DNA of 64,000 nt from a virus. Taxonomy: Duplodnaviria > Caudoviricetes. The stretch is taken from positions 3,037 through 67,036 of IMG/VR virus record IMGVR_UViG_3300047160_000446; one strand, written 5' to 3'. The notes below the pieces were generated by a model. That model did no database searches, was not told the origin of the DNA, and saw only the letters and a list, made by a program, of their open reading frames with translations. The number at the start of each line of letters is the position of its first letter. Position 1 is the first letter of the stretch. Shown one piece after another: positions 6,286 through 48,218 of the stretch. The translations under genes were made by a program, and so were the position numbers.

Positions 6286-6298
6286 GAAGTAAGTGGGC

Positions 6299-6341
6299 GG
6301 GATAGTGGACATCGTTGGCGCTTTGTTTGCTATCCCTTTTT
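6299..6341 (+). terminator. probable intrinsic terminator
   Basis: GGGATAG...CTATCCC stem followed by T run. Confidence 0.5.
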
Positions 6342-6366
6342 CTTTGTCTAAATTGGAGTATGATAA

Positions 6367-6675
6367 ATGGAAGTGAATTTGAACGGCAAATCGACCATCC
6401 ATCAAGCTGGAAACGTGGCCAGTATCGAAATGGAAGCGGTCCCGGAGAGCAAGAAAAACATTGCCGAAATCATCTTTTGGCTTAGCGCGGAGCTTCGCGA
6501 GATTGATCAATGCCCCTTGAACCTGAGGAAAGACTACAAGTTGAATCTTGTTCAGACGCTTCAGAAAAACACCGGAATTGATTTGAGCTTGTACGAACAA
6601 AAATATTTGTCCAAAGAAACCGTTCCGCAAATCGATGAAGAAAAACAGTTGACCAGCGGTCAACAAAAGCAATAA
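6367..6675 (+). CDS. hypothetical protein
   Basis: 102-aa ORF, GGAG upstream. Confidence 0.7.
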   Translation: MEVNLNGKSTIHQAGNVASIEMEAVPESKKNIAEIIFWLSAELREIDQCPLNLRKDYKLNLVQTLQKNTGIDLSLYEQKYLSKETVPQIDEEKQLTSGQQKQ

Positions 6676-6725
6676 ACTAATTTCGCTGACTAAACAGCAA
6701 AAACCAACGAAACAAGGAAATCAAA

Positions 6726-7235
6726 ATGAACGTTCATCAAACTGCCGCAGCAATCTGCGAAGTCGCAAAAGCAGCTGTCGAAATCGATAGCCATCGAGAA
6801 ATCAGCATTGAATCCCGAGCAAGCCTGATTCAAGTCATGATTTCCGAAGTTGAAATCAACACCAATATCAAGCTTGGCCAGCTTTATGAAATGTTCAATC
6901 TGGAAGAACAGAAAGAAGACGTTCCGAACTCTCCGAACGTAGTCGTTCGCTCTTTCATCATCGGAGGCCAGACCCCGGAAGAAGGCGCAGACGAACCGAA
7001 GAGCGGCGAAGAGGATTGCCAATGTCCGTCATGCCAATTCCGTCGAACCTTGGCGAAATATTTTGACAAGGTTGCAGAAGCGGAGAGGGAAGCCGAACAA
7101 AAAGGCGCAGACATTCCGAAGACTGCCGAAGATGTGGCCGCGTTTATGCAAAAAGCAAGCGCTGAAGTTTCCGAAGCTGCGCGCGAAGTTGCCGAATACA
7201 CGGCTGAACAACAGCGCGGCGGAGACCCGGAATAA
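6726..7235 (+). CDS. hypothetical acidic protein with CxCxxC motif
   Basis: 169-aa ORF, AAGGA upstream, DCQCPSC. Confidence 0.75.
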   Translation: MNVHQTAAAICEVAKAAVEIDSHREISIESRASLIQVMISEVEINTNIKLGQLYEMFNLEEQKEDVPNSPNVVVRSFIIGGQTPEEGADEPKSGEEDCQCPSCQFRRTLAKYFDKVAEAEREAEQKGADIPKTAEDVAAFMQKASAEVSEAAREVAEYTAEQQRGGDPE

Positions 7236-7401
7236 TGGACAAGATCGAAGATTACAAAAATCTTTGCGCGATGATGTATCAATTCGCGGCACAGTCCGGC
7301 GCAACCGCTGAACTTTTGGACATTCTTCAAGACGCTTCGGAAGGAAATCCGACTTCAGAAGAATTGAGAGCGGCTCACGAATACATCATCAGTTTGGAGG
7401 A

Positions 7402-7932
7402 ATGATGAGCAAACTTGAATTTCTCAACCTAATCCATCAATGGGGCGTTGACCGCAACATTATCGGAACCGGCGGCACGGTTCAAGGGCAGCTTTATAAG
7501 CTGTTCGAAGAGTTCGGCGAACTGTCCAAAGCCCTGGCCAAGAAGGACAAAGCAGGAATCGTTGACGGGATTGGAGACGTTGCAGTTGTTGCCGTGATGA
7601 TCGCCGGATTGCTTGGAACCGAAGTTCAAAAACTTGTTGACGATTCTCACTATTGGGAAAGGCTGGAACATACTCACAGCGAAATGTCATCTTCATTAGC
7701 GTGGATTTCTAGGGCGGCTCTGGAAGGCAATCCGGAAATCATCCGGTACTTTGAAAATCTTTTCGAAGAACTTTCCCAGCTTGCCAATCAGGAAGGCTTG
7801 ACCTTCGAAGCCTGCCTTGAAGCTGCATGGAACGAAATCAAGGACCGCAAGGGCATTATGTTTAACGGCGTCTTCGTGAAGGAATCTGACGAACGTTATC
7901 CGGAAATAATGGCCGAACTTGGCCGCTCCTAA
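7402..7932 (+). CDS. mazG: MazG-like nucleotide pyrophosphohydrolase
   Basis: KLFEEFGELSKA...DGIGDVAVV and CLEAAWNEIKDRKG motifs; GGAGG RBS. Confidence 0.85.
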   Translation: MMSKLEFLNLIHQWGVDRNIIGTGGTVQGQLYKLFEEFGELSKALAKKDKAGIVDGIGDVAVVAVMIAGLLGTEVQKLVDDSHYWERLEHTHSEMSSSLAWISRAALEGNPEIIRYFENLFEELSQLANQEGLTFEACLEAAWNEIKDRKGIMFNGVFVKESDERYPEIMAELGRS

Positions 7933-31507: not shown

Positions 31508-32938
31508 TTATTCCTCGCTGGCGGAAAGCAGGTAAGCGCCCACTTTGTTCTTGCTGTTCGGAGTCGCGCTGTCTTGCGCGCGGGTTTGTTTGGCAGCAGT
31601 TGCACGAACCGCATTCGTCCGTTCGACAGCGGTCAAATAACTGTCAAGAGCAATGCCTTCTTGGCCCTTGGAGCATTTGATTTTCAGCTTTTGAACGCCG
31701 TAAAGCTCAACGCCGCGACGGTCCATTTTTGCGCTGTCGAAAGTGCCAATGACGTTGGACAGGCGGCTAGCCAGCTTGTCAGCAGCAACGATGTCTTCGC
31801 GAATTTTCTTTGTCATGCGAGACACAAAAGCGGCGTCGCCTACTGCGGGCGAGTTTTCGCCTTTAGCCGGCTTATTCATTTCTTCTCCTTCGTCTGCGAT
31901 TCGTTCCGGAACACCTTCGCCTAGCGTGCTTTCTTCGTCTTCGGCTTTTTCTTCCTTGGACTCTTCTTCGTCTTCGGCCTTTTCGGTTTCTTCGTCCATC
32001 TCGGTTTTTCCTTCGCCTTCATCGCCGGTTTGGCCGGCCATGCCTTGAAGGGTGGAAATAACCTGATTCAGAGCGCCGATAACTTGGCTAAGCGGATTTC
32101 CGCCTTCTTCGCCTTCGTCTTCGCCTTCTTGGCCGAATTCGCCACTTGCAGCAGGAACAGCCGGCTCAATTTCTTGATCGGCTTCAGAACCGCCCATTTC
32201 TGCGCCGCCTTGATGGGCTGGTTCGGTCGCCTCCTCGCTGAGAAATTCTTGCAAGGCTGGAAGCAGCTGCTTCAGTTGTTCAACAGCATTGTCCATTGCT
32301 TTGCGGGACTTGGAATCCATCGCGCGGCGCGGGCCTTTGCCTTTCTTGTTTCCTTGAATAGCCATGCTATTACCTCTTTGGGGAATGATATTAAAATCTA
32401 AATGGTCAAAGACCAGCCCATCCAACACCCGCGCGCCTTCTACTCTCGCTTCATCTACTAAAGCAATGTGGTTGCCGCGCATATTCGTCTGAACGAATTC
32501 GTATGGCTGTCCTTCAAATGTTCCAGACTGCTCCAAAAACTTGCAGGCATATCCAAGAGAAACCGGAGTTTTTCCTGTTTCGATATCTTCCTGCATTTGG
32601 CGAGAAAAAACTTTCAAATCAGCCATCATCCAGGGATCGGAGAACCAGACATTTCCAGTCATGATCCCATCAATTCCGTAATCCTCAGGAGCGGTCAAGC
32701 CGCTGTCTTTATCGCCTGATAGATATTCGTGATTGTTGATGAAGGGTAGGTTTTGGAAACTCGCCAAAGCTTCCGGATCAGTAAGAGCAGATTTAGGACG
32801 GTAAACTTTAACGATTCTATTCGGATCGCCAGAAGCGCCGACTTGAGCAGCGCTATAATCAAAAATGCCATAGCTGGATACAGGACAGCCCTTAATCGTC
32901 ATGTAGCCATTTGAGTCTATTTCTCTCGCTGTAGCCAT
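31508..32938 (-). CDS. prohead protease/scaffold (DUF2213-like)
   Basis: DSNGYMTIKGCP, VSLGY, NHIALVDEARVEGARVLD; acidic scaffold half. Confidence 0.9.
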   Translation of the reverse strand: MATAREIDSNGYMTIKGCPVSSYGIFDYSAAQVGASGDPNRIVKVYRPKSALTDPEALASFQNLPFINNHEYLSGDKDSGLTAPEDYGIDGIMTGNVWFSDPWMMADLKVFSRQMQEDIETGKTPVSLGYACKFLEQSGTFEGQPYEFVQTNMRGNHIALVDEARVEGARVLDGLVFDHLDFNIIPQRGNSMAIQGNKKGKGPRRAMDSKSRKAMDNAVEQLKQLLPALQEFLSEEATEPAHQGGAEMGGSEADQEIEPAVPAASGEFGQEGEDEGEEGGNPLSQVIGALNQVISTLQGMAGQTGDEGEGKTEMDEETEKAEDEEESKEEKAEDEESTLGEGVPERIADEGEEMNKPAKGENSPAVGDAAFVSRMTKKIREDIVAADKLASRLSNVIGTFDSAKMDRRGVELYGVQKLKIKCSKGQEGIALDSYLTAVERTNAVRATAAKQTRAQDSATPNSKNKVGAYLLSASEE

Positions 32939-33596: not shown

Positions 33597-33617
33597 TATT
33601 TCTTTCCTTATAAATTT

Positions 33618-33658
33618 AAAAGCGCGGAAAGCCTAATCAAAGACCTTCCGCGCTCTTT
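33618..33658 (-). terminator. intrinsic terminator after Gly-rich gene
   Basis: AGCGCGGAA...TTCCGCGCT inverted repeat followed by T run on the minus strand. Confidence 0.7.
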
Positions 33659-33673
33659 ACCTATTTAGCCTAA

Positions 33674-34579
33674 TTAGGCTACGCGGGTGTTTGCGGCAGC
33701 TTGAGTTGCGCTGCCCGTCATCGTGCCGGAATTGAACACGACTTGTCCTTGACGAATTGCCTGGACATCGTGATGCAGAGCACCGAAGGTGTTGATAAGC
33801 GCCTGGAACTGTTGTTGCTGTTGGGCTTGCGCTTGAACTTGGGCAACGTTCTGGCTGACGTTCACTTCCACGCCGCGAGCGGCATGATTAGCGCGCGATT
33901 CAGCAAGTTCAGCTTGCAGTTCGGCAATGGTATTCGCATCAATCTTGCTACCAAGACCGCAGATAGCGGTCAGGATAGCTTGAGTGTTCGAAGAGTTTGC
34001 TTGCAGCGAAAGAGCGATACCATTTTGCACGGTATCCTTAATTGCGCTGGCGGCTTGCAATTGACTGATGTTGTTCTGGTTCAGGATGTTCGAAAGCTCA
34101 TTGGTCTGAGACAGAATCGAATTCTGAACTTGCAAAGCGCTGTTCGGGATTTCGCCCTGAATAGTGCCGAGCTTATCCATCAGCAACAATTGGTTGGTGC
34201 AACCAGCGCCAGCGACGGAGTCGAACGCAGCACGTTCGCAACCGCCGCCATCACGGCCACCAAACAGACCGCCACGATTGCCCAGCAGCGCGCCAATCAG
34301 CAGGCCGCCAAGCAAACCACCGCCACCACCACCACCAAAACCGAAGCCGCCAAGACCTCCGATACTTTCGATGTTTTCGGATACCATGTGATTATCACCT
34401 TTTGTTTGTTTGTGGACTTTGTGAACTTTCTCGCCAATCTTTTCCATGCCTTTGTGCAGCTTTTCAAAACGCTTTTCACTGCGCTTCTCATGCTGTTCAA
34501 GAGTCATGGGATGTTTGGCCATGTCGTGTTCTGACATAGCAGTAGATTGGCTGGAGGGAGTGAGGCTATAGCCTTCCAT
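33674..34579 (-). CDS. Gly-rich/Gln-Asn-rich protein with hydrophobic glycine-zipper segment
   Basis: GGLGGFGFGGGGGGGLLGGLLIGALLG; Q/N-rich C-terminal half; GGAG RBS. Confidence 0.85.
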   Translation of the reverse strand: MEGYSLTPSSQSTAMSEHDMAKHPMTLEQHEKRSEKRFEKLHKGMEKIGEKVHKVHKQTKGDNHMVSENIESIGGLGGFGFGGGGGGGLLGGLLIGALLGNRGGLFGGRDGGGCERAAFDSVAGAGCTNQLLLMDKLGTIQGEIPNSALQVQNSILSQTNELSNILNQNNISQLQAASAIKDTVQNGIALSLQANSSNTQAILTAICGLGSKIDANTIAELQAELAESRANHAARGVEVNVSQNVAQVQAQAQQQQQFQALINTFGALHHDVQAIRQGQVVFNSGTMTGSATQAAANTRVA

Positions 34580-34625
34580 TTATTATCTCTCCAGATTTTT
34601 TGAACACGGCGAACGCCGCACTAGA

Positions 34626-34654
34626 ATTATACGCAAATATACTAGCGCTTACAA
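34626..34654 (-). promoter_or_regulatory. sigma70 promoter
   Basis: TTGTAA-17 nt-TATAAT upstream of the Gly-rich gene. Confidence 0.75.
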
Positions 34655-34666
34655 CTGATTTAATCA

Positions 34667-35308
34667 TCAAACATTATTAACAATGCGCTGGATACAAAGG
34701 GTTATTTGATTGATAGTCATATTTGCTCCGGAATCGTTTTTCAGTCCAAGAAGGAAACCGCTATTTGTGTAGCTATCGTTTTCTGAACTGGTGTAATCGA
34801 CAAAAGTAACTTCGCGATTAACGACAGAATTCCCGATGACTTTGAATTGATCGATAGAACTTATTATCTCTTTAGACTCCGGTTTGCTTGTCAACACATA
34901 CCATTGTCTAGTTCTTCCGTTTTCTCCTCCTACAGTTCCAGAGATTTTCACAGAGATTAATATCTGAGTTTTTCCGTGAACAGCAGGGAATTTGAACGCG
35001 GCGCTTGACGTGTCAATATGGGCATCGTTTGAATCAAACTTTTCAAAAGCCGATGCATCAAAGTTAAAGTATGCGTCTGGCGGCACTCTAATATCGCCGC
35101 GCCATGCAAACGTGTCTTGAGTGAAGTTTTTCATTATTGCTCTTTCTACTGTTTGACGGTCAGTTGGTGATAAAGATTGAGACAACATCATTCTTGCTAC
35201 GTAAGGCTCTCCGTTTTCAGGATCAACGAACGCTGCTCCTAGTGCAAATTGTTGGTTTATTATTGGATCGTTCGACGGTATCTTTACTTCCATTGTTATT
35301 AATCTCAT
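34667..35308 (-). CDS. accessory structural protein with beta-rich C-terminal domain
   Basis: N-terminus resembles that of 35305-37182; ATGA overlap. Confidence 0.75.
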   Translation of the reverse strand: MRLITMEVKIPSNDPIINQQFALGAAFVDPENGEPYVARMMLSQSLSPTDRQTVERAIMKNFTQDTFAWRGDIRVPPDAYFNFDASAFEKFDSNDAHIDTSSAAFKFPAVHGKTQILISVKISGTVGGENGRTRQWYVLTSKPESKEIISSIDQFKVIGNSVVNREVTFVDYTSSENDSYTNSGFLLGLKNDSGANMTINQITLCIQRIVNNV

Positions 35309-37182
35309 TTAGGCGTTCCGATTGGAACCATTGAAAAGAAAGGAAGCTCTCTATCTACCGATTGCTTTGAAACAGATAAATTATTCCCTGCTGTGTGATA
35401 GATTCCTACTTCGAATGTATCGCCGGCATTGCACTTAACAATAGCATTACACTCTTGTCGTATAACATTTGTTCTTCCCCAAATCGACTGAGTATTAAAC
35501 GCATATCTTGCGTTTCTGTCACCCCCTTTGAAAATAAAAATTTCTCTGTGCCCCGTGTCGTCTCCGGGCCATGAAACGGCGGCGCTGATTAAATAAACTC
35601 CAGTTCTAGGGGCTGTCAAAACAGACTGATATGTAGACGATGTGTAATTATTCGAATCATAGACTGTGTCCCATGCGCTTATAACGTGAAGGCTTGCATT
35701 ACCAATTGTCAAAATTACATCTGATAATCGCAATTTACATCCTGTATCTAAGACAGGATTAGATTTCAAAACATATCTTGCGTCTCCGTTAATCGTGTCG
35801 ATTATATCTCTTCTATTTGATCCATTATTGTCTTCTATTTGCGGCTGAGTTCCACCGGTGTGTTCTCTTATGGTGACGCCGCCGCCATATCTTTTATATA
35901 TCGCACAACCGCCCATCATCATTAATCCATAGCCATCTGTGAGCGTATTTAAATGGCTGTTGGCAAATGAATTATTTCCTGTGAATGCATTATTGCCTGC
36001 TGCCGTCACATCACCAATTCCGCCAACAGGGCGGCTATCAACATATTGCTTTGTGGCGGCCCCTAATGCCGATGTCGGATCGGCATTCAAAATTAGCGAA
36101 CCTGTCATTGTCGCGCCTGCTTTTGAAACCCCATTGACAGTATCTAAAATAGCTCTTCTAGAAGTTCCGTCTTGACTTTCTATTTCGGGCTGATTCGCTC
36201 CGCCTTGAACGATTCTTAAAGGGTTTCCGGTTTTAACTCTAATAGACCAGCCAGCGCCAAAATTCACCCCGTTATCTACAGCAACATTCAAGACTTGAGA
36301 AAATGAATTCGATCCGGTAAAAGCATTATCTCCAGCTTTAGTCACATCCCCAATATAAACAGGCTTGGAATCAATATATTGTTTTGTAGCTGCTTCTAGC
36401 GGCTGAACTGGATCGGCATACAGTATCAGCGGGCCTAACATAGAAGAGCCTATTCTCGCGACTCCATTGTCAGTGTCTAAAATATCTCTTTCGTTTAACC
36501 CGTTATTATTTTCTATCTTTGGCTGATGATCGCCCGAAGCAGTTCTTAAAATTATTCCGCCGCCCGCTTTCTTGTAGATATACCCCTGATTTGCGAATTC
36601 AACGCCCGCGCCATCAGTCATAATTCTTAAATGATTTCCTTCTAGTGATGTTGGCCCTTTTAATCTTGTGATGCTTAGGAAATCATTTTGAGAGATGAAA
36701 GTTTGATTAGCATCTAGCAATGCGACGTTAGGAGGGATTCCGCGAAGATTGGAAACGGCTTCCAGATACCAGAAGTTAGTTATCGGGTCGAACGCCGTTC
36801 TTACAGTTGTGTTCCAAGGGACAGAAACAGTGTCCAAAGGCAATGGGCTGCCAGCTGCAATAAATTGCCTTCCCGTTATGCTGCTTATGATCATTGTCGG
36901 TCTTGTTTGATCATCTCCAAGATTGGCGAAGTTATAAGAGGTCCCTTGCGTGAATTCCGGAATTCTTATTTCAATATCCCTGTCAGATAGACCGATAACA
37001 TCTGAACCTGCGGTTTCCTGCGGCAGGTCTAAATTTTCTCTCGTCACGACAACACGAATAAAAGCGCTTGGGCCTAATTCGCCTATTTTGTATGGATTGC
37101 CTGTCGCCGGATCAATCGGCATAATACCAACTGTGTAATGATCATTTGTTATATGCGAGTCTGACGGAACTTTAACTTCCAT
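35305..37182 (-). CDS. fibre-like protein with internal repeats and C1q/TNF-like tip
   Basis: ADP...AATKQY.DS repeats; TAPRTGVYLISAAV. Confidence 0.8.
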   Translation of the reverse strand: MEVKVPSDSHITNDHYTVGIMPIDPATGNPYKIGELGPSAFIRVVVTRENLDLPQETAGSDVIGLSDRDIEIRIPEFTQGTSYNFANLGDDQTRPTMIISSITGRQFIAAGSPLPLDTVSVPWNTTVRTAFDPITNFWYLEAVSNLRGIPPNVALLDANQTFISQNDFLSITRLKGPTSLEGNHLRIMTDGAGVEFANQGYIYKKAGGGIILRTASGDHQPKIENNNGLNERDILDTDNGVARIGSSMLGPLILYADPVQPLEAATKQYIDSKPVYIGDVTKAGDNAFTGSNSFSQVLNVAVDNGVNFGAGWSIRVKTGNPLRIVQGGANQPEIESQDGTSRRAILDTVNGVSKAGATMTGSLILNADPTSALGAATKQYVDSRPVGGIGDVTAAGNNAFTGNNSFANSHLNTLTDGYGLMMMGGCAIYKRYGGGVTIREHTGGTQPQIEDNNGSNRRDIIDTINGDARYVLKSNPVLDTGCKLRLSDVILTIGNASLHVISAWDTVYDSNNYTSSTYQSVLTAPRTGVYLISAAVSWPGDDTGHREIFIFKGGDRNARYAFNTQSIWGRTNVIRQECNAIVKCNAGDTFEVGIYHTAGNNLSVSKQSVDRELPFFSMVPIGTPK

Positions 37183-37183
37183 T

Positions 37184-37426
37184 TTAATTTCTTTCTAGGA
37201 GGTTCACTAAAGTTGTGCTGTGATGTTCTGCCATGTTCAGCGGCAGGATTGCTTGAATGGGATTTATTGATATAAAGAAATCGTTCAATTCTGGAATAAG
37301 AATTAAATTGAATTGCATCTTTCCAAAACTGAACGATCCGACATTTGCAGACGCGGCAACAGTGAATTTCTGTTTGTTTCCGCGTTTATCTATTAGCATG
37401 TAAACTGTCGGAATCATAAGCACCAC
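37184..37426 (-). CDS. small hypothetical protein
   Basis: 80-aa ORF ending 2 bp before the fibre-like gene start. Confidence 0.5.
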   Translation of the reverse strand: MVLMIPTVYMLIDKRGNKQKFTVAASANVGSFSFGKMQFNLILIPELNDFFISINPIQAILPLNMAEHHSTTLVNLLERN

Positions 37427-37536
37427 TTTTAAAAGTTCGTTTAAACACTACAAATAACAATTATTCTAATCCGGCGCGCCACAGATAGGAAGTTCGCTGA
37501 GTGTTGCGGGGACATCATACGAAATCGCAAAAAGTG

Positions 37537-37565
37537 TTGACGTGCGAAAACGTGTCAGGTATGAT
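37537..37565 (+). promoter_or_regulatory. sigma70 promoter driving + strand island
   Basis: TTGACG-17 nt-TATGAT. Confidence 0.8.
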
Positions 37566-37636
37566 TCATCACATCAGCAGCGGAAACCAAGCTGCGAACC
37601 ACGGCAGAATGGCCGAACTTAGAAAGGAAAGAACTC

Positions 37637-38023
37637 ATGAAACAAAAGACTTTTTCTCGCACTGTTGATAACATGCTGCATAAGAAAATGGACGTGCGCC
37701 GGATGCGTCGTCTTTATCGCACAGCTGTGGAAGTGAATCGAAGAAACCAATCCTTCGGCGCGCAAGAAAGCGTAGAGTTCGCCCGTAAGACTTTGAACAG
37801 AATTGATCATCGCATGTCCAAGTATGTTAAGAAGTTCAACGCTGCTCTTGAGCGCGAGCAAGCGGCCAAAGCCGCGCCCGATCAAATGGACATCGCTTTG
37901 AAATCCGTCCCGGCAAAGCCCGCCGTTATCGAAGTTGCGTCTATCGAAGTTCCCGCAGAAATCAAAGTTCGCAAAACTCCGGCCCGCGATGCGAAGGGCC
38001 GTTTCATTAAAGCTGCGGCTTGA
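37637..38023 (+). CDS. basic hypothetical protein ending in RDAKGRF motif
   Basis: 128 aa, AGAAAGGAAAGAACTC-ATG. Confidence 0.85.
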   Translation: MKQKTFSRTVDNMLHKKMDVRRMRRLYRTAVEVNRRNQSFGAQESVEFARKTLNRIDHRMSKYVKKFNAALEREQAAKAAPDQMDIALKSVPAKPAVIEVASIEVPAEIKVRKTPARDAKGRFIKAAA

Positions 38024-38035
38024 GGAGAAATCAGA

Positions 38036-38395
38036 ATGCTCAAAGGGATTTCTAACGGAAATTTTTCTGCTCTTGTTGTCTTTCCTGAGGGTAGGAATCA
38101 GATAGGAGTTTACAAAGGTCCTATACGAGAGCTAAACGGAAAGACGGCTCTCATAAGGCCCAATTTGTGCAAAGAATATTTGCTCGCACAATTTGATCAA
38201 TTCGGCCTGACTCATGTCTACGGAGATGAAAAAGTTGATCTTTCTCATGGATGGCATGGATTTCTTAAATCAGAATTCAAAATAATTTGCAGAGAATGCA
38301 ATGGTTCTGGCGTAGAAGTTAGCAGTGAAGGTAACTATCACAAATGTTCGTATTGTGATGGCAAAGGATCGTTCAAAATTTATGATGGGCTGTAA
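38036..38395 (+). CDS. protein with C-terminal DnaJ-type zinc finger
   Basis: CRECNGSG...CSYCDGKG; GAGGAG RBS. Confidence 0.75.
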   Translation: MLKGISNGNFSALVVFPEGRNQIGVYKGPIRELNGKTALIRPNLCKEYLLAQFDQFGLTHVYGDEKVDLSHGWHGFLKSEFKIICRECNGSGVEVSSEGNYHKCSYCDGKGSFKIYDGL

Positions 38396-38426
38396 TTCGC
38401 AGCCTTTAACCGTCGAAAGGTAAAAC

Positions 38427-38882
38427 ATGCTTTACATATTTGATTTGGATGGCACGCTTGCAAACATCGATCATCGTTTGAAACACATCGAAGGCGATAA
38501 GAAAGATTGGTCCGCATTCTATAAGGCTTGCGTTTATGATCAACCGAATGAATCCGTTATCGGTCTTCTGAACGCGTTGAGCGATGGCGGCGAACATGAG
38601 TTTGTAATCTGGACTGGACGAAGCGAAGAAGTTCGGGAAGAAACAATTCAATGGTTCTATGATAACACCGGCCTTTACCTCGAAGAAATCGAAGATATTT
38701 TGCGGATGCGTCCGGAAGGCAATTTCGAATCTGGAGCGAAGCTGAAAAAGCAATGGCTTGATGAATTTCGCGAACATCGTGGCGACTTGAACGAATCCGG
38801 CGACATTTGCGCGATTGAAGATGAAGAAAAGGTTTGCCAGATGTGGAAAGAAAACGGCGTTGCAGTTCTGCGCGTTCTGTAA
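38427..38882 (+). CDS. HAD-family phosphatase (PNKP phosphatase-like)
   Basis: FDLDGTLA, WTGRSE, LRMRP, IED..VCQMW motifs. Confidence 0.9.
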   Translation: MLYIFDLDGTLANIDHRLKHIEGDKKDWSAFYKACVYDQPNESVIGLLNALSDGGEHEFVIWTGRSEEVREETIQWFYDNTGLYLEEIEDILRMRPEGNFESGAKLKKQWLDEFREHRGDLNESGDICAIEDEEKVCQMWKENGVAVLRVL

Positions 38883-38891
38883 ATGAAGTGA

Positions 38892-38908
38892 GCGGCAAAC
38901 ATCGCCGC
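38892..38908. terminator. hairpin between convergent genes
   Basis: GCGGC-N7-GCCGC. Confidence 0.45.
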
Positions 38909-38921
38909 CCAAACTGATTAA

Positions 38922-41894
38922 TTAACCGACTAAAGGAAGCTCCTCAATACAGATTTGATCGAAGTTAGAGTTTGCAGTAATTGAGCATGATTGTGCTGCA
39001 TCGGCCAACAGAATCAATCTAATTGTATCCCCTGCCTTCAGATTAAATGTCCACGTTCCACTAATGAAAACATTGGTATAAGTCCCTGCTCCGCCCCAGC
39101 AGAACAGAGATGCTATCGGGTATCCGTTCTGGAAACTCGATCCGTTCAAAGATGGGTAAACCCCGAACCTTTGTCCTGTTCCGGTAAGCGTGACATTCCC
39201 CAATGCTGAGAACGTAACACGATAATATCCAGCCCTTGGCGCTGTAAAAATACCAGTCGAAGGAACGAATGCGGTTGAGTTGTCATATACATTGTTTGTC
39301 CACGCTACAGCATTCCCTGAAGCGCCAGAGTTTGCATTTATATATTTCAACCTAACAAGATTAGAACCGCTCGCTGGTTGCCAAACGCTGCTTTGCGAAT
39401 TCCAGGAAAATTCCCTGAAACTATTCGCAGGAATTCCAACGTTTTGAACTTGGAAGCTTTGCGTTCCGCTGTTAAGGACTTTTAAGTTTCTGACTTTGGT
39501 TCCCGCTGTCGGAGCAGGAAGAGTCAATAGCAAATTTCCTGCGGTTGTTTGCGGGATGATGATACATCCTGCGATATCCACTGTCGCGGCGGCGGTCCCA
39601 ATTGAGCCGGCAGCAGTGAAATTAGAAAGGCTTACGACTGCTAGTCTGTCGGTTAGATCATAAGAAGCATCTCCCATTAGCCGACCATCTTGTCTTCCTG
39701 CTGCTGGTGCTGGAACACCTCCCAAAGACCCAGCAGCGCCGGATGTTGCTCCAGCAAACGCCGGAACATCAGCTTGCTGGATGGCAGACCATGCAGAAGC
39801 TGATGTGCTAGACGTTCTGTAAAACATCCCAGCACTGGTTGGCGCTGCGCCTGGAACTGTCGCTTGCCCTACCTTCGCAACAGATGGGCTCGCGGCGGTT
39901 CCTCCAATATCTCCCGCCAATTGAACAACGCCTTTAGACGTAGCCGTTGCATCCGCTGTAGCCGGAGACGTTCCCCAAGCAGCAGCGTTTGCAGCCGAAG
40001 CAATCAACACTTGCCCAGCAGAAGGAGTTCCGCTAATTGCTACGCCTTGAATCTTCTGAACAGTCGGAGACGCAGCAGCGCCGCCGAAATCGCCAGCAAG
40101 CTGGACTACACCTTTTGACGTAGTCGTTGCGTCCGGAGTCGCAGCCATTGTTGACCATCCGGCAGATGTAGGCCCTGACGCGGTCAGAATCTGCCCTGCT
40201 GCTGGAACTCCGCTAATTGCCACACCTTGTATCTTCTGAACCGTTGGAGAGGAAGAAGAGCCGCCAAGATCGCCGGCCAGCTTGACAAGCCCAGCTACAG
40301 AAGTCGAAGCGAACGGAATTAATTGGTTCCAGTTCGACGGATTCCATGCTGTTCCTGATGCAATAGTCGTGTTCGCAACATAAACGTTTCCGTCAACCGG
40401 ATAAACAACCGTCTCGCCGGCTTTATAAGCGCTCGATTGCGCCCATGACGCAATATAAGCGCGATAATCGCCTACGACTGGCAGAACGTTTCCTGTCCGC
40501 GCATTGAACGAAAGAACAGTGGTCGCAGTCGAGCCACCGTCAATCCAGTTTGTCAAAACTGTAGGGTCAAGATTGGCATTCAGATAAAACAATTCCTGAA
40601 TATCTTGTTGCAAGCAAATCGTCAGATTATTTGATCCAGGCAAAGCAACACGCGCTGCTTGGTTCGCAACGACTTGATAATTCGCAGCCTTAGCTGTGGC
40701 GCTAATCTTGCCAGAAGAATCAACAGCGATTGTAACGCCGTCAACCGATACAGCGCCGATTTGCGAAGTGGTGGCTTTCGGGAATGCGGTTTGCACGTTC
40801 GCAACGGATATCACTAGAACGTCTTGGTAAGACGCTCCAACAACTTTCGCGTAAGGCAACGTGTTCGGAGTTCCGGGCCGGACATTAAGCAGTGTTCCAT
40901 CTGCTTTTACTATCTCGCCGTAAGTTGTAAAACCAGAAGACAAGTCAATGCCTGGAGAAAGGATTAGATTCAAAGGGACGCCGGCTGTTGTGCTAACCGT
41001 CATGCTTTGAGAGTAAAGGAATCGTCCTTGTTTATTCGTATCATAAAGATTATACGATATTTCACCCGAATAATATTCGGAAGGAATAACGGTCAATTCA
41101 AAGACGGAGAAATTTCCGTTCCAAAGATTGACGGAACCTTGTTGAATCGATCCTGCTTGCACTGCGCCGTTTATTTCTAGAGTTTGCAATGCATTGTGCA
41201 TTCTCGTCGTCAGCGGCGTTTCGTTCAAATTGGTTCCGTCATAAGTTGACGATTGCCAAGCAGGGAACCAATCAATTCCGGTATCGAGGTTCTTGAAGAA
41301 AACATTCTGCGCGCCGGAACTAATGCTGTGCATGTTGGAGAGATAGAAACTCCCCGGACCAGTCGTGATAGATTTTGCTATCGAAGTCCCGTTAACAGAA
41401 CTGGAAATCAAATCGGTCCATGCGCCATTGCTCAATTGCTGAAGTGCGGCACTCATTTGGCCGCCCGTTCCGTTTTCTATTTCCCATCGCAAAGAACCGT
41501 TCTGCGTTGGCGATCCGGAAATATAAACAACTCCTGCTGTGTTTCCTGCTGTTACGTCTTGGCCAGTCCCGCCGCCTCCACCAGAGGAAGCAGCGATGAA
41601 AGCGAACACATGGCGAGTGCTATAGAGGTTGCCATAAAGCAAATGACAAAAGCTATTCGGCGGAACAGCAATACTTGTCGCGTCTCCAGCTGCCGTTTTA
41701 AAAGTTACATCGTTGTTTGGCGCTACAATCGTCACGGTTGAAGTTGACAAATTGTAGAAATTGATGAAATCCTCTGAGAACTGCCCTTTGCCTACATTAA
41801 CGCTTATCGGAATCGGTCCTTGATAAGTATATTCTTCGTTCGGTTGCAGCCATTCATTATTGAACGATGCTATCCGCAAAGATTGTTGCGCCAT
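38922..41894 (-). CDS. 990-aa fibre-like virion protein (CBM-like module, fibre repeats, C1q-like tip)
   Basis: WAQSSAYKAGETVVY..GNVY; three GxVxLAGDxGG repeats; FVPSTGIFTAPRAGYYRV. Confidence 0.8.
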   Translation of the reverse strand: MAQQSLRIASFNNEWLQPNEEYTYQGPIPISVNVGKGQFSEDFINFYNLSTSTVTIVAPNNDVTFKTAAGDATSIAVPPNSFCHLLYGNLYSTRHVFAFIAASSGGGGGTGQDVTAGNTAGVVYISGSPTQNGSLRWEIENGTGGQMSAALQQLSNGAWTDLISSSVNGTSIAKSITTGPGSFYLSNMHSISSGAQNVFFKNLDTGIDWFPAWQSSTYDGTNLNETPLTTRMHNALQTLEINGAVQAGSIQQGSVNLWNGNFSVFELTVIPSEYYSGEISYNLYDTNKQGRFLYSQSMTVSTTAGVPLNLILSPGIDLSSGFTTYGEIVKADGTLLNVRPGTPNTLPYAKVVGASYQDVLVISVANVQTAFPKATTSQIGAVSVDGVTIAVDSSGKISATAKAANYQVVANQAARVALPGSNNLTICLQQDIQELFYLNANLDPTVLTNWIDGGSTATTVLSFNARTGNVLPVVGDYRAYIASWAQSSAYKAGETVVYPVDGNVYVANTTIASGTAWNPSNWNQLIPFASTSVAGLVKLAGDLGGSSSSPTVQKIQGVAISGVPAAGQILTASGPTSAGWSTMAATPDATTTSKGVVQLAGDFGGAAASPTVQKIQGVAISGTPSAGQVLIASAANAAAWGTSPATADATATSKGVVQLAGDIGGTAASPSVAKVGQATVPGAAPTSAGMFYRTSSTSASAWSAIQQADVPAFAGATSGAAGSLGGVPAPAAGRQDGRLMGDASYDLTDRLAVVSLSNFTAAGSIGTAAATVDIAGCIIIPQTTAGNLLLTLPAPTAGTKVRNLKVLNSGTQSFQVQNVGIPANSFREFSWNSQSSVWQPASGSNLVRLKYINANSGASGNAVAWTNNVYDNSTAFVPSTGIFTAPRAGYYRVTFSALGNVTLTGTGQRFGVYPSLNGSSFQNGYPIASLFCWGGAGTYTNVFISGTWTFNLKAGDTIRLILLADAAQSCSITANSNFDQICIEELPLVG

Positions 41895-41915
41895 TTTGAT
41901 TCACCTTATAAATTA

Positions 41916-42797
41916 TTAGAAATCCAAATCAAGCACTGCTACCATTCTGCAACGGCAATTAATCGCAAATCCCGGCTTACCTCTATCGTTCTCAGGGACT
42001 TCCGCATTAGCGTCGGAACCGTCAACATTATAGAGTTCGCTCGCCCCTCCTTTCAGAAGATAAATCTTTCCATCTCTTTCCACATGCGAATGGCGCGGCG
42101 TTTTCCCTGCTGAACTGTGAATCCATTTAAACTTTTGCAGGCCCGAATTCTCCATTCGCTGAGTATTCAGAGCGCTATAAACTTTCTTCGTTTGATCTGT
42201 TGCGATAAGCTTTGCGCGCCTATCGCTCATTCCTTCTATTTGCGTTAGGTGATTGTAAATACCCGCGATGCCTTGTTCGCCAGAATCAGGCGACATCATG
42301 GATTGATTTACAGCCATTTCGACGCGGTCAAAAACATCTTGACCAACCTTCGTTATCAAACGGACGTTTTCAGCTATCTGCGATTTCAGAATTACATTCA
42401 AATCGCCTGGTTTTCTATCTACATACTCAACGCCAAGCTTTCCTAGACTAGCGTTCGTAGTCGCCACGCTATGCTTATCAACTTTGTTGACGAAAGCTTC
42501 GGAAAGTTTTTGAGCCGTTTGGCTGAATATCGCTTCATACCTTTTCCTGATAGCGATCAACGCCTTGTCGAACTTAGGAATTGGTGAAGCGGCGTCTTCA
42601 GCGAAAAAACCCTTGACCGCAGGGTTTTTAACGACTTTGTTTAGCTCTTTCCGCGCTTCGTTCACGTACAGGCCGATAACTTTTTGAAGCTGTTCGGTGT
42701 ACCAATCCCTAATCGGGGCGCTGGGAATCATTTGATAACCCTCAGCAATCGGCGGCCTTACTCTTCGTTCACGTTTACTAGAAGCGCGGAAAGCCAT
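41916..42797 (-). CDS. MuF / SPP1 gp7-like head morphogenesis protein
   Basis: RAKLIATDQTKK, FKWIHS...PRHSH, PGFAINCRC. Confidence 0.92.
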   Translation of the reverse strand: MAFRASSKRERRVRPPIAEGYQMIPSAPIRDWYTEQLQKVIGLYVNEARKELNKVVKNPAVKGFFAEDAASPIPKFDKALIAIRKRYEAIFSQTAQKLSEAFVNKVDKHSVATTNASLGKLGVEYVDRKPGDLNVILKSQIAENVRLITKVGQDVFDRVEMAVNQSMMSPDSGEQGIAGIYNHLTQIEGMSDRRAKLIATDQTKKVYSALNTQRMENSGLQKFKWIHSSAGKTPRHSHVERDGKIYLLKGGASELYNVDGSDANAEVPENDRGKPGFAINCRCRMVAVLDLDF

Positions 42798-42800: not shown

Positions 42801-43244
42801 TTATTCCTTAGTTTCTTGTTTGTCTTCGGTCTTCTCCGGCTGCTTCTCTGGTTCTGCCTTTGCTTTCTTCTCAGACTTCACAGCGTCTTGAGTGCTGTTT
42901 TCATCGAACTTTTGAAAGTTCAGTTTGAATTGATAATCCGAAAAGACAGAATACATTCCTTGATTCGATACGATCCAATCGCCTTTCGGTTCTTCGTTAT
43001 CATCGTTGATATTTGCGGCCCGAATTGCGCCATCATATCCATGGAAGAAAATACCATCTCCGGGAATGGTCTTGTAAATCGCATCTCCTTCTTCATCGAC
43101 GCCTTCCATTACCAGATGGACGCAGGAACCGGAAATAAATCGATGGCCAAGAACGCCTTTGATTTCTTCTTCGTTGTCCTTGTCGAACAGAACTTGAATT
43201 GCGCCTACAGTGTTGAAACCGTTGTAATAAAGTTCAAATGCCAT
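42801..43244 (-). CDS. hypothetical protein
   Basis: 147-aa ORF, AAGGAG RBS. Confidence 0.75.
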   Translation of the reverse strand: MAFELYYNGFNTVGAIQVLFDKDNEEEIKGVLGHRFISGSCVHLVMEGVDEEGDAIYKTIPGDGIFFHGYDGAIRAANINDDNEEPKGDWIVSNQGMYSVFSDYQFKLNFQKFDENSTQDAVKSEKKAKAEPEKQPEKTEDKQETKE

Positions 43245-43470
43245 GTGTCACTCCTTTTGCCTTATCTTGGCGTTGGGTTTCGCTTGCCGTGGAAGCCTCT
43301 GATTGAAGCTTTTCTTTCTCTACATCTTCAGGCGCTAATGGCAAACCTTGATCAGTTTCAGGTCCGCCGCCTGCTTCTACATTGCCAAACATTCCCATTG
43401 TTTCATCTTCGGAACTTGCCGGGACGATGTCCAGGCCCTCAAAACTTTCCATGAATTTTTCATTAGCCAT
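43234..43470 (-). CDS. small acidic hypothetical protein
   Basis: 78-aa ORF overlapping both neighbours. Confidence 0.65.
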
Positions 43471-46400
43471 TGCTGAATTCCACGATTACGCGAGCTTTAC
43501 GCGTTCTTGTTCCCTTAATAACTTCCACCACTTTGAACTTGCCTCCGCGATTCATTACTACTTCTTCTTCGTTCGGGAATTGGCTGATATCTTTAACACT
43601 AACCGCCTTGCTTCCTTTAGGAACTCGAATTTCCATGATCGCGGAATTATCTCCTCTTGCGAAGTTTTTAGCTTCTGCCTCGCTTGAAGTGGTAGAGCTA
43701 AACGATTTGTCTTGCCAGCTGTCGCCAGGTTTCAGTTTGTCCAAGAACGACTTGTCAGAGATACCACGGAAAACTGTCATATCTTCTTTAGTCGAAGCCT
43801 TTTCAAACAGTTTGTCCATTTGCTCAACATCTTTCTTGTGTTCTTTCGGAACTCCTTTTCCAGACCTAAGAGCCGGACCTAAATCCCTGAACATTGCACC
43901 GGTATATTCTTGCATAGCCTGCTTCTCTTTGTCAGTCATATTTACCGGCGCGGCAGAGATATGTACAGCTTCAGATTTCTGTTTCGGGGTTTGTTTCTTT
44001 TCCTTCGCTGCTTCTTTCGGAGTTTCCGCCTTAGGAGTTTCTGCCTTCGGTGCTTCCGCTTTCGGTGCTTCCGCCTTAGGAGATTCTGTCTTCGCGGATT
44101 CTTTCGGAGCTTCGGACGTTTCCTCTTTCTTAGACTTGACTTCGGAAATATTCTTGCCGTTGAACTTGCCGCCCATTCCGCCAAGTACTTCGCCTCCTGC
44201 ACCGATCATAACCGGTTGGCCTTTCTCTTCTTGTCCGTTCGGCTTAACAGTTATCCAAGCATCTCCGACTTCATTCTGTTGTCCTTGAAAGGGCTGATTC
44301 AAATCTCCAGTGTTAATCCAGTTCTTCAACTGGTCAAGCGTTATTTCATGCAGACTGTCTAAACCTTGCCAATCCGCATCATAAGCTTTCCTGTAATAAC
44401 GTTCTGCTTGTTGCGCATCGTCGAACCCAAGCATTACTTTGTGTTCATCGAACTCGCCAGTTTCAGGACACTTCTGATTGATCACAAAAGCTTTGTCGCT
44501 TGCCAGATTCGGACCAACGAACACGTCAAGTTCATCGCCGTCTGCTGCCTTCGTGTTCTTCACAAAGCCATAATGACACGGCATCATCGTTCGCCATTCA
44601 TTACCGGCCATGTCTTTGCCCGCCCTTACCGATCCTTTGTAGTTCTCAATCCCAAGCCTCATGCCTTTATAGGGCATTTCCGGAAGCTTGGCGTTGAATC
44701 CGCCAGCAGGAACATGCAATTCATCAGGCGTTGCCTTGCGCGGATTGTAGTAGTCTGGTTGTCCCTGCTGAACCGTTTCAATCAGGCGCTCAATCATTTC
44801 CCTCAATCCGGGTTCGGCGATGGTGTTTGCCAGTTGTCCCGGAGAAGATACGCTTGCGGGAGAATCTTCTTCGACTTCATCTCCTTCTTTCGCCATCTTC
44901 TGTTTGGGCTGTTCATTTCCTTTTCCGCTAGAATCTTTGTCCGGCTGCTTCTCTGCCTGTTGCGTTTTGGCTCCGGCTGTTTCTTCTTTCGCTCTAGCCT
45001 CTTGGAATCCCATTTGATTCTCCGGAGACTGGCCGAAATCGGTTTCTGCTTCAGCATCGCTGATATTCGCATAGCCTGACAGTTTGTCATTGCGAACACG
45101 GGCGCGTTCTTCATCCGGAGCAATCACGCCGCCATTAATGAGGATTTGACCGGTTTCGGCTTCAGTCTTATTAATGTTGGCAAGTTCTTCAGCGGTTTTG
45201 CTATCAACCGGGTTCCATGCGATTTCAGTTTCAAACGGCTCCAGATTATATTTCGGAGCAATCTCGCTTCTAATTGCTAGCAAATGGTGGCGCTGCAATA
45301 GCGGCGTGCATTCGTGCGTCTGAATCGTTTCAAGCTCTTCATGATAAGACTTGGTCTCTTGGTCGCCACTGGAATTGAATCCGCCTGGAGACGTTCCCAA
45401 AAGCTTGACAGCCGGAACCTTCGAAATCCCTGAAACAATCTGATATTGCCCGAAGATAACCGAATCAAGATCGGAAAGGCTAATATCGAATTGCTCCACT
45501 ACGTCACCAATACCAACAACGCGAGTTTGGTAATTGTCGCGGAACATAACGGATTGCATCATCCGCTTTGCGAACTCTTTCGGGCGCGCGGCGACCTTGG
45601 CCAAATCAACATGAAGAACGTTCAGTCGTTTCGACATCGCCAGCTGCGGCGCTTCATTTGCTGTTCGTTCTGCTGCATATACGCGTTCGTAAATCCGCTG
45701 AGTCAGCGGGATTCCACCGAAGATGTAAGTCGGTTTCAACACGTCAGCAGGCACAGGGCCGCGATTAATTACAAGGTGCGTTCTGTGATAGCGTTTGCCG
45801 GAAATAATCCACCATTCCGGCTCATAGAAATGTCGGTTCGTTTGATCCGCACTGCCGCGCAAAGATAACATTGGCATCATCCAATACGGATCAATTTGTT
45901 TCATGCCTTTGTAGCTGCCCGGAATCACGCCATCGGGATTGAATGGCTTTTCGTAATATTTCGGATCGGTTGATTCAACATCGAAAACAGTAACGCGAAT
46001 TCCGAAGATATTCGTGAATCGAACAAACTGTTTCATTTGTTCGATAACGCCCATCTCCAAATCTATCTTTTTCAGGTCCGACAATGCTTCATCAGGAACT
46101 TCTGTCCCATCAGTCACATTCACATCGTAGCCGTTTCGAACAGCGTCTTCCCCCGGCATTGTGCAAGCTTTGTCAACAAGCCAATGCTGGGCGATGATTG
46201 CGCACGATTGATATCCGATAAAGCCTTGCGAATTGTACCATTGTTGCAAAGCTTCGGGAACAGTGTACGGATTTCCTTGATCAAAACTCTTGATCAAGTT
46301 TTCTCCGCTTCCGCTGATGTCGTCCATCGCGTATTTGACGGACGTAGCAACAACGGACATTACCGGATCATTCTCAAAGTCTGCGGCGTCCATGACGAAT

Positions 46401-46636
46401 CCATCGCCAACAAGCGGGATGTCGTCAAATAGTTCTGCAATCGGAAAGTCGGTTACAGGACGAACTTTAAACGGGTTTTCATCGGACCATGACGCAATCG
46501 CTTTTGCCGTCGATGGGCGATAGATATCCATGTCGTAGATATCTATTTCTTTTTTCTCTTGCGTTTTTACTTCTTCTTTTTGATTGGCCTGGATATTTTT
46601 GTTTATCCACTGCCAGAATCGTTCCGAAAGTTTCAT
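43463..46636 (-). CDS. portal protein (DUF1073-like) fused to pyrophosphatase-like domain and ADP-ribosyltransferase
   Basis: Portal: [45 protein letters not shown]; PPase-like: [21 protein letters not shown]; ART: VFRG, FSSTT, EEEVV. Confidence 0.9.
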
Positions 46637-46751: not shown

Positions 46752-48218
46752 TCACAGGTAATCCAGCCAATCCGATCCGCCCGTTTTCCAGGCCGGCATT
46801 AATGGGATGAAAATTTTGGCCAAATTATCCCACGCATATTCTGATTTTTCATTCACGATGTCAAAAAAACTCAAAGACTCAACGTTAACAGCCAAATGTT
46901 CAAGAGCATAGCGGACAGCATCAAATACATGATCATTTCCTTTTTCTAGAATAGGCAGAATTCTTCCGCTCATTCTGTCTGTTTTCCAGCGATATTTCTT
47001 TGCTTCTTCTAAAGCATAGTAACAACGCGGATGAATATAAATGCGATCAAAGTTATTGAGGAATTGCAAGCCGTTTTCAACGCTTCCAGGGCCTTTAACT
47101 GCGGCCTCGCAATCAAACTCATTGTCAAGCATGGTATTGATTGCAACTGGCAGCGAACTATCCGCGCGAATTCTCCACTTGACTTGTCTGTTTCTTGCGC
47201 CTTCTCTGTTCAGCGTCGGAATAGTTTCCGCCAATGACGGCAAATCATCCAGTTTTGCGTTATGATTATATGCTTCATAATCAATCCACAAACACGGCTT
47301 GTCTCTTTCGTTCTTTGCAATGAAGCAGCGAATGAACGCTGTCGGGTCAGCGCCGCCGTTACTCCAGTCCGCGCCGTGATAAAACTCAACATTTGCAGGC
47401 GCTTCAAATTCTCGCATCTCAGTTCGCTTAATAACTGTCGCACCTACGATGCGTTTCGTGAACCCAAGCCAAATCCAGGCATAATCCGCTTCTGCTTGCA
47501 ACCGCGCTTCTTCATTCGGAGCGTCGATGATCCGTTGCAATGAGTTCTGTCTATCAGATTCAAGCGATTCCGTGAAATAGGGATTGTCGTAATAGTTTAC
47601 TTGAATCTGAAAGCGGTCTTTGTAACCCTCTTTCCCCGCCTTCTCCACCATCTCTGTATAAATGAACGCATCTGAATCTTCAGGGTTCATCGTGATGATG
47701 ATTCTGTTGTCCGGCATACGAATAGACGGTAACAGTTTTTCAAGCGTATCTTTTGTATTTGTTTGGCCTTCTTCAAGCCATGCAACAAGGATGTTCGAAA
47801 TAGATTTAAGGGAATTCACGTTATTGTGAAGACCCTTGAATATCGCCGCCGATTTGGATCGCTTATGAACAATCTTATCGCGAGTTATTTTAAACTCAGC
47901 CATTCTGTTCGCGCGATCAATGGCCGATTCTATTTCTTGCTTTGTCGATTGTTCAATGGAGTTCTGGAATTCACGCGCGCATAGCATGTTTGCCTTGACA
48001 ACGGACATCATCCGCCGCAGCCAATCAGCAACGCTGAATGTTTTACCGCTTCCGCGCCCGCCATGGATTGTAATAACCCGATGGTTGCGCATTACTTCGC
48101 CATTGGGATCGAGGCAAGTGAAAGGATTGGGACGCGCAAGAACTTCGGCACGTGTTTTGGGATCATTTACAGGATCAAAGGGCCGTAGTTCTTTCTCAAG
48201 ATCGAATAAGGCAGACAT
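46752..48218 (-). CDS. terL: terminase large subunit
   Basis: HGGRGSGKT Walker A, AWLEEG Walker B, nuclease motifs GADW and DHVFDAVRYA. Confidence 0.95.
   Translation of the reverse strand: MSALFDLEKELRPFDPVNDPKTRAEVLARPNPFTCLDPNGEVMRNHRVITIHGGRGSGKTFSVADWLRRMMSVVKANMLCAREFQNSIEQSTKQEIESAIDRANRMAEFKITRDKIVHKRSKSAAIFKGLHNNVNSLKSISNILVAWLEEGQTNTKDTLEKLLPSIRMPDNRIIITMNPEDSDAFIYTEMVEKAGKEGYKDRFQIQVNYYDNPYFTESLESDRQNSLQRIIDAPNEEARLQAEADYAWIWLGFTKRIVGATVIKRTEMREFEAPANVEFYHGADWSNGGADPTAFIRCFIAKNERDKPCLWIDYEAYNHNAKLDDLPSLAETIPTLNREGARNRQVKWRIRADSSLPVAINTMLDNEFDCEAAVKGPGSVENGLQFLNNFDRIYIHPRCYYALEEAKKYRWKTDRMSGRILPILEKGNDHVFDAVRYALEHLAVNVESLSFFDIVNEKSEYAWDNLAKIFIPLMPAWKTGGSDWLDYL

Follow-up and report, generated by a model that had tools for sequence, protein, structure and literature searches.

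The stretch of DNA analysed here (the window) comprises 64 kb of the 67,036-bp virus record IMGVR_UViG_3300047160_000446, which carries direct terminal repeats and was judged complete. On the minus strand of the window, the gene for the large terminase subunit (terL) ends 115 nt upstream of a portal gene, whose long product is the subject of this work. The portal open reading frame (ORF) runs from ATG to TAA through 1057 amino acids (aa) without internal stops, within a stop-to-stop frame of 1071 aa, and is preceded by a modest AAGG ribosome-binding site (RBS). Further head genes follow downstream in the same orientation and encode a MuF protein, a DUF2213 protein, a cement protein, and the major capsid protein. 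The portal product matched four Pfam families, Phage_portal_3, InPase (PF18823), ADPrib_exo_Tox (PF03496), and ART (PF01129), in each case above the curated cut-off (Table 1). An earlier reading of this DNA, made from the letters alone (the sequence-only reading), had described a single uninterrupted 1057-aa ORF after terL, and both the frame and the motifs quoted for it were found as described (GIENYKG at residue 662, HYGF at 688, DGDELD at 699, DEHKV at 730, DAWITV at 792, VFRG at 955, FSSTT at 979, and NEEEV at 1022).

The N-terminal half of the protein is a portal. Phage_portal_3 (PF06381) matched aa 142-495 (E = 6e-74; 249 bits against a cut-off of 33.8), gp19 of phage E217 (8fvh_O) aligned to aa 127-564 (E = 4.5e-165), and the full 765 aa of Pa193 gp19, including its InPase domain, aligned to aa 99-786 (E = 2.6e-205). 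The proposed DUF1073-type portal is thus borne out by the Phage_portal_3 match and by homology to solved dodecameric portals. Behind the portal core, InPase (PF18823) matched aa 651-775 (E = 2.2e-43; 147.8 bits against a cut-off of 26.8) over model positions 11-135 of 135. Residues Y689, D699-x-D701-x-x-D704, and D730 aligned to the tyrosine and metal-binding aspartates of solved family I pyrophosphatases, and the InPase motifs are identical to those of Pa193 gp19. The family match and four conserved acidic metal-site residues (D699, D701, D704, and D730) uphold the pyrophosphatase-like domain of the sequence-only reading. Pyrophosphate or a nucleotide-like molecule has been suggested as the substrate of InPase domains (Iyer et al., 2017; PMC5512222).

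A tblastn search of 50,697 phage records returned 1035 related portals, from phages of Vibrio, Pseudomonas, Acinetobacter, Xanthomonas, Escherichia, and Burkholderia, among others, and a megablast search of the same records with the portal gene gave no match. None of the 1035 portals covered 80% of the query; all stopped at query residue ~786, and the best (BcepF1-like, Wifcevirus, and PB1-like) ended at residue 777-788. Likewise, ten close IMG/VR relatives have a portal reading frame that ends shortly past InPase; six of these have the MuF gene immediately behind it, and the remaining four have one to three small ORFs in between. Since related portals end just past InPase, the portal-InPase fusion is the normal, ancestral state of the whole PB1/BcepF1/Wifcevirus clade. 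The proteins of this clade, exemplified by Pa193 and E217 gp19 (PDB 9b41 and 8fvh), align full length to aa ~54-788 of the window portal with 45-48% identity, and their phages share its InPase motifs and the gene order terL-portal-MuF. In contrast to these proteins, which stop right past InPase (765 aa in Pa193 gp19), the window portal continues for ~270 aa. The idea that enzymatic cargo sits on the portal therefore needs to be divided: InPase and an ADP-ribosyltransferase (ART) are both present, but InPase is ancestral and only aa ~790-1057 were acquired.

The acquired part ends in the ART domain. PF03496 matched aa 899-1053 (E = 9e-25; 87.6 bits against a cut-off of 23.4), and PF01129 matched with E = 1e-9 (38.2 bits against 22.3). 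In a phmmer search of PDB sequences, the domain aligned to VIP2, C3, Certhrax, ExoS/T, and the Listeria Lmo0066 ART, and residues R957, S981-T982-T983, and E1023-x-E1025 fell on the catalytic Arg, S-T-S, and E-x-E of VIP2. An exhaustive search gave 5392 representative ART relatives at E <= 1e-3, the nearest single-domain ones being ~50% identical. In an alignment of 47 homologues, the Arg and both Glu residues were at least 90% conserved and the Ser was invariant. This conservation and the VIP2 alignment confirm the R, S-T, and E-x-E signature noticed in the sequence-only reading. C3 toxins have Q-x-E at the last of these motifs; by analogy, E-x-E in place of Q-x-E predicts arginine rather than asparagine as the acceptor. 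Matches in the PHROGs library were to phrog_3895, "exoenzyme toxin" (1.2e-12), and, less well, to phrog_802 (Alt; 2.4e-7, a partial match limited to aa 837-960) and phrog_26651 (8.7e-4).

Structure prediction gave the same assignment. A single-sequence AlphaFold2 model of aa 783-1057 was unusable, with a predicted local distance difference test score (pLDDT) of 44.7, and was replaced by a model of the ART domain alone built with the 47-sequence alignment (pLDDT 92; predicted template modelling score, pTM, 0.82). Foldseek matched this model with probability 1.0 to C3, ExoS, Certhrax, VIP2, and 8za7, at query-normalised template modelling (TM) scores of ~0.6-0.7, and to the Lmo0066 ART, also with probability 1.0. 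The C-terminal domain therefore does model as an ART fold. In the viral structure library BFVD, the model matched MuF-ART "head morphogenesis" proteins, T4-type RNA-polymerase ADP-ribosylases, and two proteins annotated as portals (A0A8S5N2S9 and A0A6J5S481). Taking the domains together, we consider it very likely that the portal-InPase-ART protein is real and catalytically competent. We also considered whether the ART might modify DNA within the capsid, which we judged unlikely, as the domain is of the protein-arginine type and NAD+ should be unavailable there.

Some relatives of this ART are carried on head proteins. Among 46 mid-size relatives, seven are fused to MuF, two to Phage_min_cap2, three to portals, and one to DUF2213. 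As a separate observation, P0053, P0054, and P0055, the nearest ART relatives without the W-I-T-V module described below, share a different conserved N-terminal leader that includes G-D-G-D-G-D-G-I-P-x-E, and their sequences suggest that alternative leaders may serve the same ART cargo.

Since separate module-ART genes and portals that stop past InPase occur in relatives, the window ORF could in principle be an artefact, in which an assembly chimera or frameshift joins a ~790-aa portal gene to a separate ART gene. However, the same fusion was found on a second contig of 10.8 kb, which encodes a 1042-aa protein (P0002) with the same portal-InPase-module-ART order and makes a frameshift or assembly artefact very unlikely. 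The in-frame junction is identical on these two independent contigs, one of 67 kb with terminal repeats and the other of 10.8 kb, and no start codon or RBS context is needed at the module. The two printed sequences read alike except for a 15-aa deletion in the repeat linker of P0002, equal to three 15-bp repeat units; in the window, this linker contains 4.5 copies of the 15-bp tandem repeat (44019-44086), which encode its PKAEA repeats. GC content is flat across the junction, and we consider an artefactual ORF extremely improbable. The flat base composition (44-51% GC across the gene) also led us to reject composition as a sign of a foreign origin for the cassette. Among 5.8 billion clustered proteins, the exact triple fusion occurs in only these two near-identical contigs.

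Comparison with free-standing genes indicates that the acquired part (aa ~790-1057) corresponds to a complete cassette of module, linker, and ART. The module is a short, glycine-rich element at aa 792-830 with 14 invariant positions in 36 diverse copies. It was present in 18 of the 149 best ART relatives, mostly at the N-terminus and followed by a low-complexity linker and the ART. Two of these free-standing proteins, P0059 (281 aa) and P0057 (292 aa), belong to a 250-300-aa class and have ARTs ~50% identical to that of the window; the P0057 gene abuts a DUF2213 gene, directly upstream of it. Because module-linker-ART genes exist elsewhere, the ~270-aa tail amounts to an entire free-standing cargo gene joined in frame to the portal. 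A third protein, P0006 (1073 aa), independently combines portal, module, and ART but has no InPase; its ART is ~30% identical to that of the window, and only two small ORFs separate its gene from a Terminase_3 gene. P0057, P0059, and P0006 thus share the order module, low-complexity linker, and ART with the window portal, but the first two are separate genes and the third lacks InPase, whereas in the window the cassette is fused with InPase. In the phage that encodes P0006, the DUF2213 protein (761 aa, L177:14452-16737, plus strand) carries a NUDIX domain, so that this phage bears enzymes on two head proteins.

The module itself recurs in uncultured phages, mostly among head genes. A pattern scan of IMG/VR gave at least 147 confirmed loci, and a scan of bacterial genomes gave 15 loci in distant phyla; by tblastn, only two cultured phages had it (an Aeromonas DH1 fragment and Vibrio 1.112.O). 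No Pfam family matched the module above cut-offs, a module profile gave chance hits only against PDB sequences (E ~1), an ESM Atlas search gave no match, and a literature search with the motif strings found no paper. We examined gene context in 80 loci of the IMG/VR set and tallied Pfam domains in 59 module proteins. The module lies 12-93 residues from the N-terminus in proteins of 77-951 aa, at positions 477-599 behind a portal core in other loci, and at positions 269-276 in two long ORFs. When the head proteins of the window were used as probes, 71 of the 80 loci had same-strand homologues of the portal, MuF, DUF2213, or major capsid protein. The module gene lay inside the portal ORF at 9 loci and inside the DUF2213 ORF at 15, began 8-15 nt past the MuF match at ~20, followed the capsid gene at 24, and lay upstream of terL at 8. 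Domains found in the module proteins were DUF2213 (13), DUF5710 (9), Phage_portal_3 (8), ddrB-ParB (5), ART (2), and LPD3 (2), together with InPase, NUDIX, a second portal type, and a metallopeptidase-like domain once each.

From its conservation and placement, the module resembles a leader or junction specific to this lineage and borne by head-internal proteins, where it may serve for docking, cleavage, or spacing. It is conceivable, and we suggest only tentatively, that it is a general head-loading or cleavage tag of the Portal_3-MuF-DUF2213 lineage that marks whatever follows for the capsid interior. Such a tag may act as part of the portal, as part of the DUF2213 protease-scaffold, or as the N-terminal segment of a free cargo protein, and the cargo may include ART, LPD3, ddrB-ParB, NUDIX, DUF5710, and many unnamed domains. 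If so, the window portal would be one covalent version of a swappable cargo-loading system.

Two features of particular module loci were noted separately. Loci L088-L110, L128, L129, and L142-L153 form one subfamily in which a small-residue amphipathic stretch, G-x-A-F-x-x-G-x-A-F-x-x-G, precedes the module, and at several of these loci I-S-A-V-P-x-x-G-K-x-E-Q-x-G-A-Q follows it; because these flanking stretches are conserved, the leader is longer than the 40-aa core in this subfamily. Locus L152 contains two module genes (4369-5316 and 5902-7710) that are separated by ~600 nt and differ in their C-terminal parts, a sign of possible duplication or diversification of cargo genes.

We next considered where the extension would lie in the particle. 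In E217, the barrel at the C-terminal end of the portal points into the head, and no density was seen for residues 529-765; the same is true of Pa193. The earlier proposal that the portal C-terminus faces the capsid interior is thus supported by a homologous structure, and by this analogy the window extension is probably present inside heads. We propose the following sequence of events. The portal of this complete 67-kb PB1-like myophage bears two enzymes in series on its inward C-terminus, the first being the clade-wide InPase and the second an acquired unit of a ~40-aa module, a flexible Lys/Glu/Ala/Pro linker, and an arginine-type mono-ADP-ribosyltransferase. This unit is a cassette that elsewhere stands free in head-gene clusters and here has entered the variable portal-MuF slot as an in-frame fusion. 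As portals are dodecamers, each head would hold up to 12 copies of each enzyme, beside the DNA end that leaves first, with InPase, module, and ART hanging inside the capsid around that end. Proteolysis would then release the ART, the candidate protease being the DUF2213 protein with its His/Ser/His residues, and the freed ART would leave with the DNA, in the manner of T4 Alt and the MuF-fused effectors. Cutting would be needed for action in the next host, since a tethered domain cannot pass the ~1500-Å tail apparatus. In the first minutes of infection, the ART would ADP-ribosylate arginine on host proteins, for takeover or counter-defence, and the substrate of InPase would be pyrophosphate or a nucleotide-like molecule.

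The proteolytic step can be placed in the context of the DUF2213 protein, which is a full-length homologue of Pa193 gp24. The PHROGs label of this family is head maturation protease, and H70, S127, and H157 are invariant in the N-terminal DUF2213 domain among 59 homologues with a median identity of 28%. Because of this label and these residues, it is plausible that the protein is a protease-scaffold fusion; the order and spacing of the His/Ser/His residues are reminiscent of assemblin-type prohead proteases. Moreover, the first 65 residues of the E217 major capsid protein are invisible, and liquid chromatography-mass spectrometry missed the N-terminal 93 residues of the Pa193 portal. By analogy, these N-terminal losses may be indirect signs of maturation proteolysis in this clade. 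The Pa193 study, the only structural paper on the family, assigns gp24 a putative scaffolding role from its residues 286-326, has it remain in the virion, and suggests that it may itself be cleaved.

Several points weigh against this scheme. The Pa193 authors read the DUF2213 homologue as a scaffold and say nothing of a protease. For this head type a cleavage motif is not known and no site has been mapped by experiment, and no motif search was made. InPase and ART cannot reach the host while tethered to the portal. The phage is uncultured, the sequence likeness to T4 Alt is weak (the partial phrog_802 match), and our literature searches found no enzyme assay of any portal-fused InPase or ART. 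Packaging and injection of portal- and MuF-fused effectors have been proposed (Iyer et al., 2017; PMC5512222; Iyer, Burroughs et al., 2022; PMC9503650). We infer that release and injection stand at close to even odds, and we regard the combined reading, in which a portal-borne InPase and ART are packaged, released, and injected, as reasonably probable.

Alternatively, the ART, and InPase with it, may never be released, and may act late in the producing cell on free or assembling portals or be a neutral passenger trapped in the spent capsid. This would fit the equivalence of the cassette to a gene that stands free elsewhere, the restriction of the fusion to two near-identical contigs, which suggests a young event, and the fact that neither a protease nor a cleavage site has been demonstrated. 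However, independent fusions of portal, module, and cargo recur (9 of the 80 module loci, plus P0006, P0013, and P0010), which points to selection of the arrangement. The catalytic residues of the ART are intact, and the long flexible linker has been kept, with a length that differs between the two contigs. We therefore consider retention without release rather unlikely.

The genes next to the portal raise another alternative. Directly after the ART, the slot between the portal and MuF genes holds two acidic ORFs, orf78 and orf147, candidate partners or inhibitors of the ART, which matched nothing in the family libraries searched and have no homologue in the relatives examined; an ESM Atlas search with orf147 returned only viral hypothetical proteins. 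The system could resemble a MuF-type polymorphic toxin, with the ART as a particle-borne toxin and orf78, orf147, or both encoding an inhibitor or immunity protein. Both ORFs are unique to this phage, and six of the ten relatives have nothing at this position. Moreover, there is an 8-nt overlap of orf78 with the portal stop, the RBS of orf147 is strong, and the ART-immunity toxin pair 8za7 is among the closest solved homologues. On the other hand, neither ORF matches any family, including the ARH and Macro immunity folds, and co-occurrence of orf78 or orf147 with other ARTs was not found. The window contains head, tail-sheath, and replication genes, although no scan aimed at lysogeny genes was made, and T4 Alt needs no immunity protein. 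This toxin-immunity arrangement is accordingly improbable in our estimate. Only the Phage_Mu_F domain was found in the MuF protein of the window, in agreement with the earlier statement that it carries no toxin.

Fusions of MuF to effectors are termed MuF polymorphic toxins. These have MuF as the N-terminal carrier; in the window, by contrast, the carrier is the portal, and MuF is a separate protein without an extra domain. The packaged, injected portal cargo that we favour can be compared with T4 Alt, an enzyme of the head interior that shares the R-S-E active site and is expected to act as infection begins. T4 Alt is a separate protein, loaded by means of a capsid-targeting sequence and cut by the gp21 protease, whereas the window ART is covalently part of the portal. 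C3, VIP2, ExoS, and Certhrax toxins share the fold and catalytic motifs of the window ART at only ~20-24% identity; unlike those bacterial toxins, it has no secretion or translocation domain and lies in a phage-head context.

ARTs fused to head proteins and polyvalent proteins have been described before (PMC5512222; PMC9503650), and the window protein resembles them in having an Alt/VIP2-clade R-S-E ART on a head component of a terminase-portal phage. As in polyvalent proteins, unrelated domains, here InPase and ART, are joined in one polypeptide within the head module (PMC5512222), but the usual carrier of head-fused ARTs is MuF rather than the portal (seven against three among the 46 relatives above). 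Fusions of InPase, PBECR, and 2H domains to portals and MuF were reported, with injection proposed, and genuine polyvalent proteins were noted to lack Alt/VIP2-type ARTs (Iyer et al., 2017; PMC5512222). Portal-fused effectors, like those on MuF, have been predicted since 2012-2017. The sequence-only reading overstated the novelty of the window portal: the portal-InPase fusion was published in 2017, with BcepF1.124 as an example (PMC5512222), and ARTs on portals were noted in a survey (Iyer, Burroughs et al., 2022; PMC9503650) and occur among UniProt viral proteins. Enzymes on head proteins are a described phage strategy, and the window portal is a rare new combination, not a new principle. What is new is the exact triple architecture with an Alt/VIP2-clade ART behind InPase, the equivalence of its tail to a cassette that stands free elsewhere, and the assignment of the module to this head lineage.

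Should the enzymes be delivered, every particle would bring a fixed dose, up to 12 copies of an arginine ART and a pyrophosphatase-like enzyme, to the point of DNA exit, and would be a simple example of a virion pre-armed for takeover or counter-defence. The function of the portal tail, InPase included, is of practical interest, since phage therapy against Pseudomonas makes use of PB1-like phages. The module could serve as a handle to find head-packaged effectors in metagenomes and, in laboratory strains, could help to load chosen proteins into phage heads.

Table 1. Coordinates of the portal ORF, its parts, and neighbouring genes in the window.
Feature	Position	Strand	Evidence
Large terminase subunit	46752..48218	-	Terminase_3 3.6e-27
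Whole portal ORF (P0001): portal, InPase, junction module, linker, ART	43463..46636	-	ORF call and Pfam
N-terminal region, aa 1-126, before structured portal core	46259..46636	-	Matches the ~93-96 first residues invisible in E217/Pa193
Portal core, aa 127-564 (wing, stem, C-terminal barrel)	44945..46258	-	8fvh_O alignment and Phage_portal_3
Linker 1, aa 565-650, Glu/Pro/Gly/Lys-rich	44687..44944	-	Composition; no domain match in Pfam
InPase (family I pyrophosphatase-like), aa 651-775	44312..44686	-	PF18823 2.2e-43
Junction/leader module, aa 792-830 (W-I-T-V-x-P-N-G ... G-M-G-G-K-F-x-G)	44147..44263	-	Conservation
Linker 2, aa 831-895, Lys/Glu/Ala/Pro-rich, PKAEA repeats	43952..44146	-	Composition, tandem repeat
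ART domain, aa 896-1057 (C3/VIP2/ExoS type)	43466..43951	-	PF03496, model, Foldseek
Catalytic Arg957 (VFRG)	43766..43768	-	Aligned to VIP2 Arg
S981-T982-T983 (S-T-S equivalent)	43688..43696	-	Aligned to VIP2 S-T-S
E1023-E1024-E1025 (E-x-E, ADP-ribosylating turn-turn (ARTT) loop)	43562..43570	-	Aligned to VIP2 E-x-E
orf78, acidic, 78 aa, overlaps portal stop codon by 8 nt	43234..43470	-	ORF call
orf147, acidic, 147 aa, strong AAGGAG RBS	42801..43244	-	ORF call
MuF-like head morphogenesis protein, 293 aa, without effector domain	41916..42797	-	PF04233 1.2e-10; phrog_324 4.7e-61
990-aa protein with DUF5907 repeats and a weak CBM_5_12 match	38922-41894		
Two ORFs, one with a weak zinc-ribbon-type (DnaJ CXXCXGXG) match	37637-38395	+	
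625-aa tail-fibre-like protein	35305-37182		
DUF2213 protein, Pa193 gp24 homologue, candidate protease-scaffold	31508..32938	-	PF09979 2.3e-34; 9b40_G 2.5e-101

The MuF and DUF2213 genes of the window are separated by ~9 kb (33600-41900, with genes on both strands), and several related module loci have their head genes spaced a few kb apart at most. Judging from the genes that it encodes, this interval is a fibre-like cassette inside the head module.

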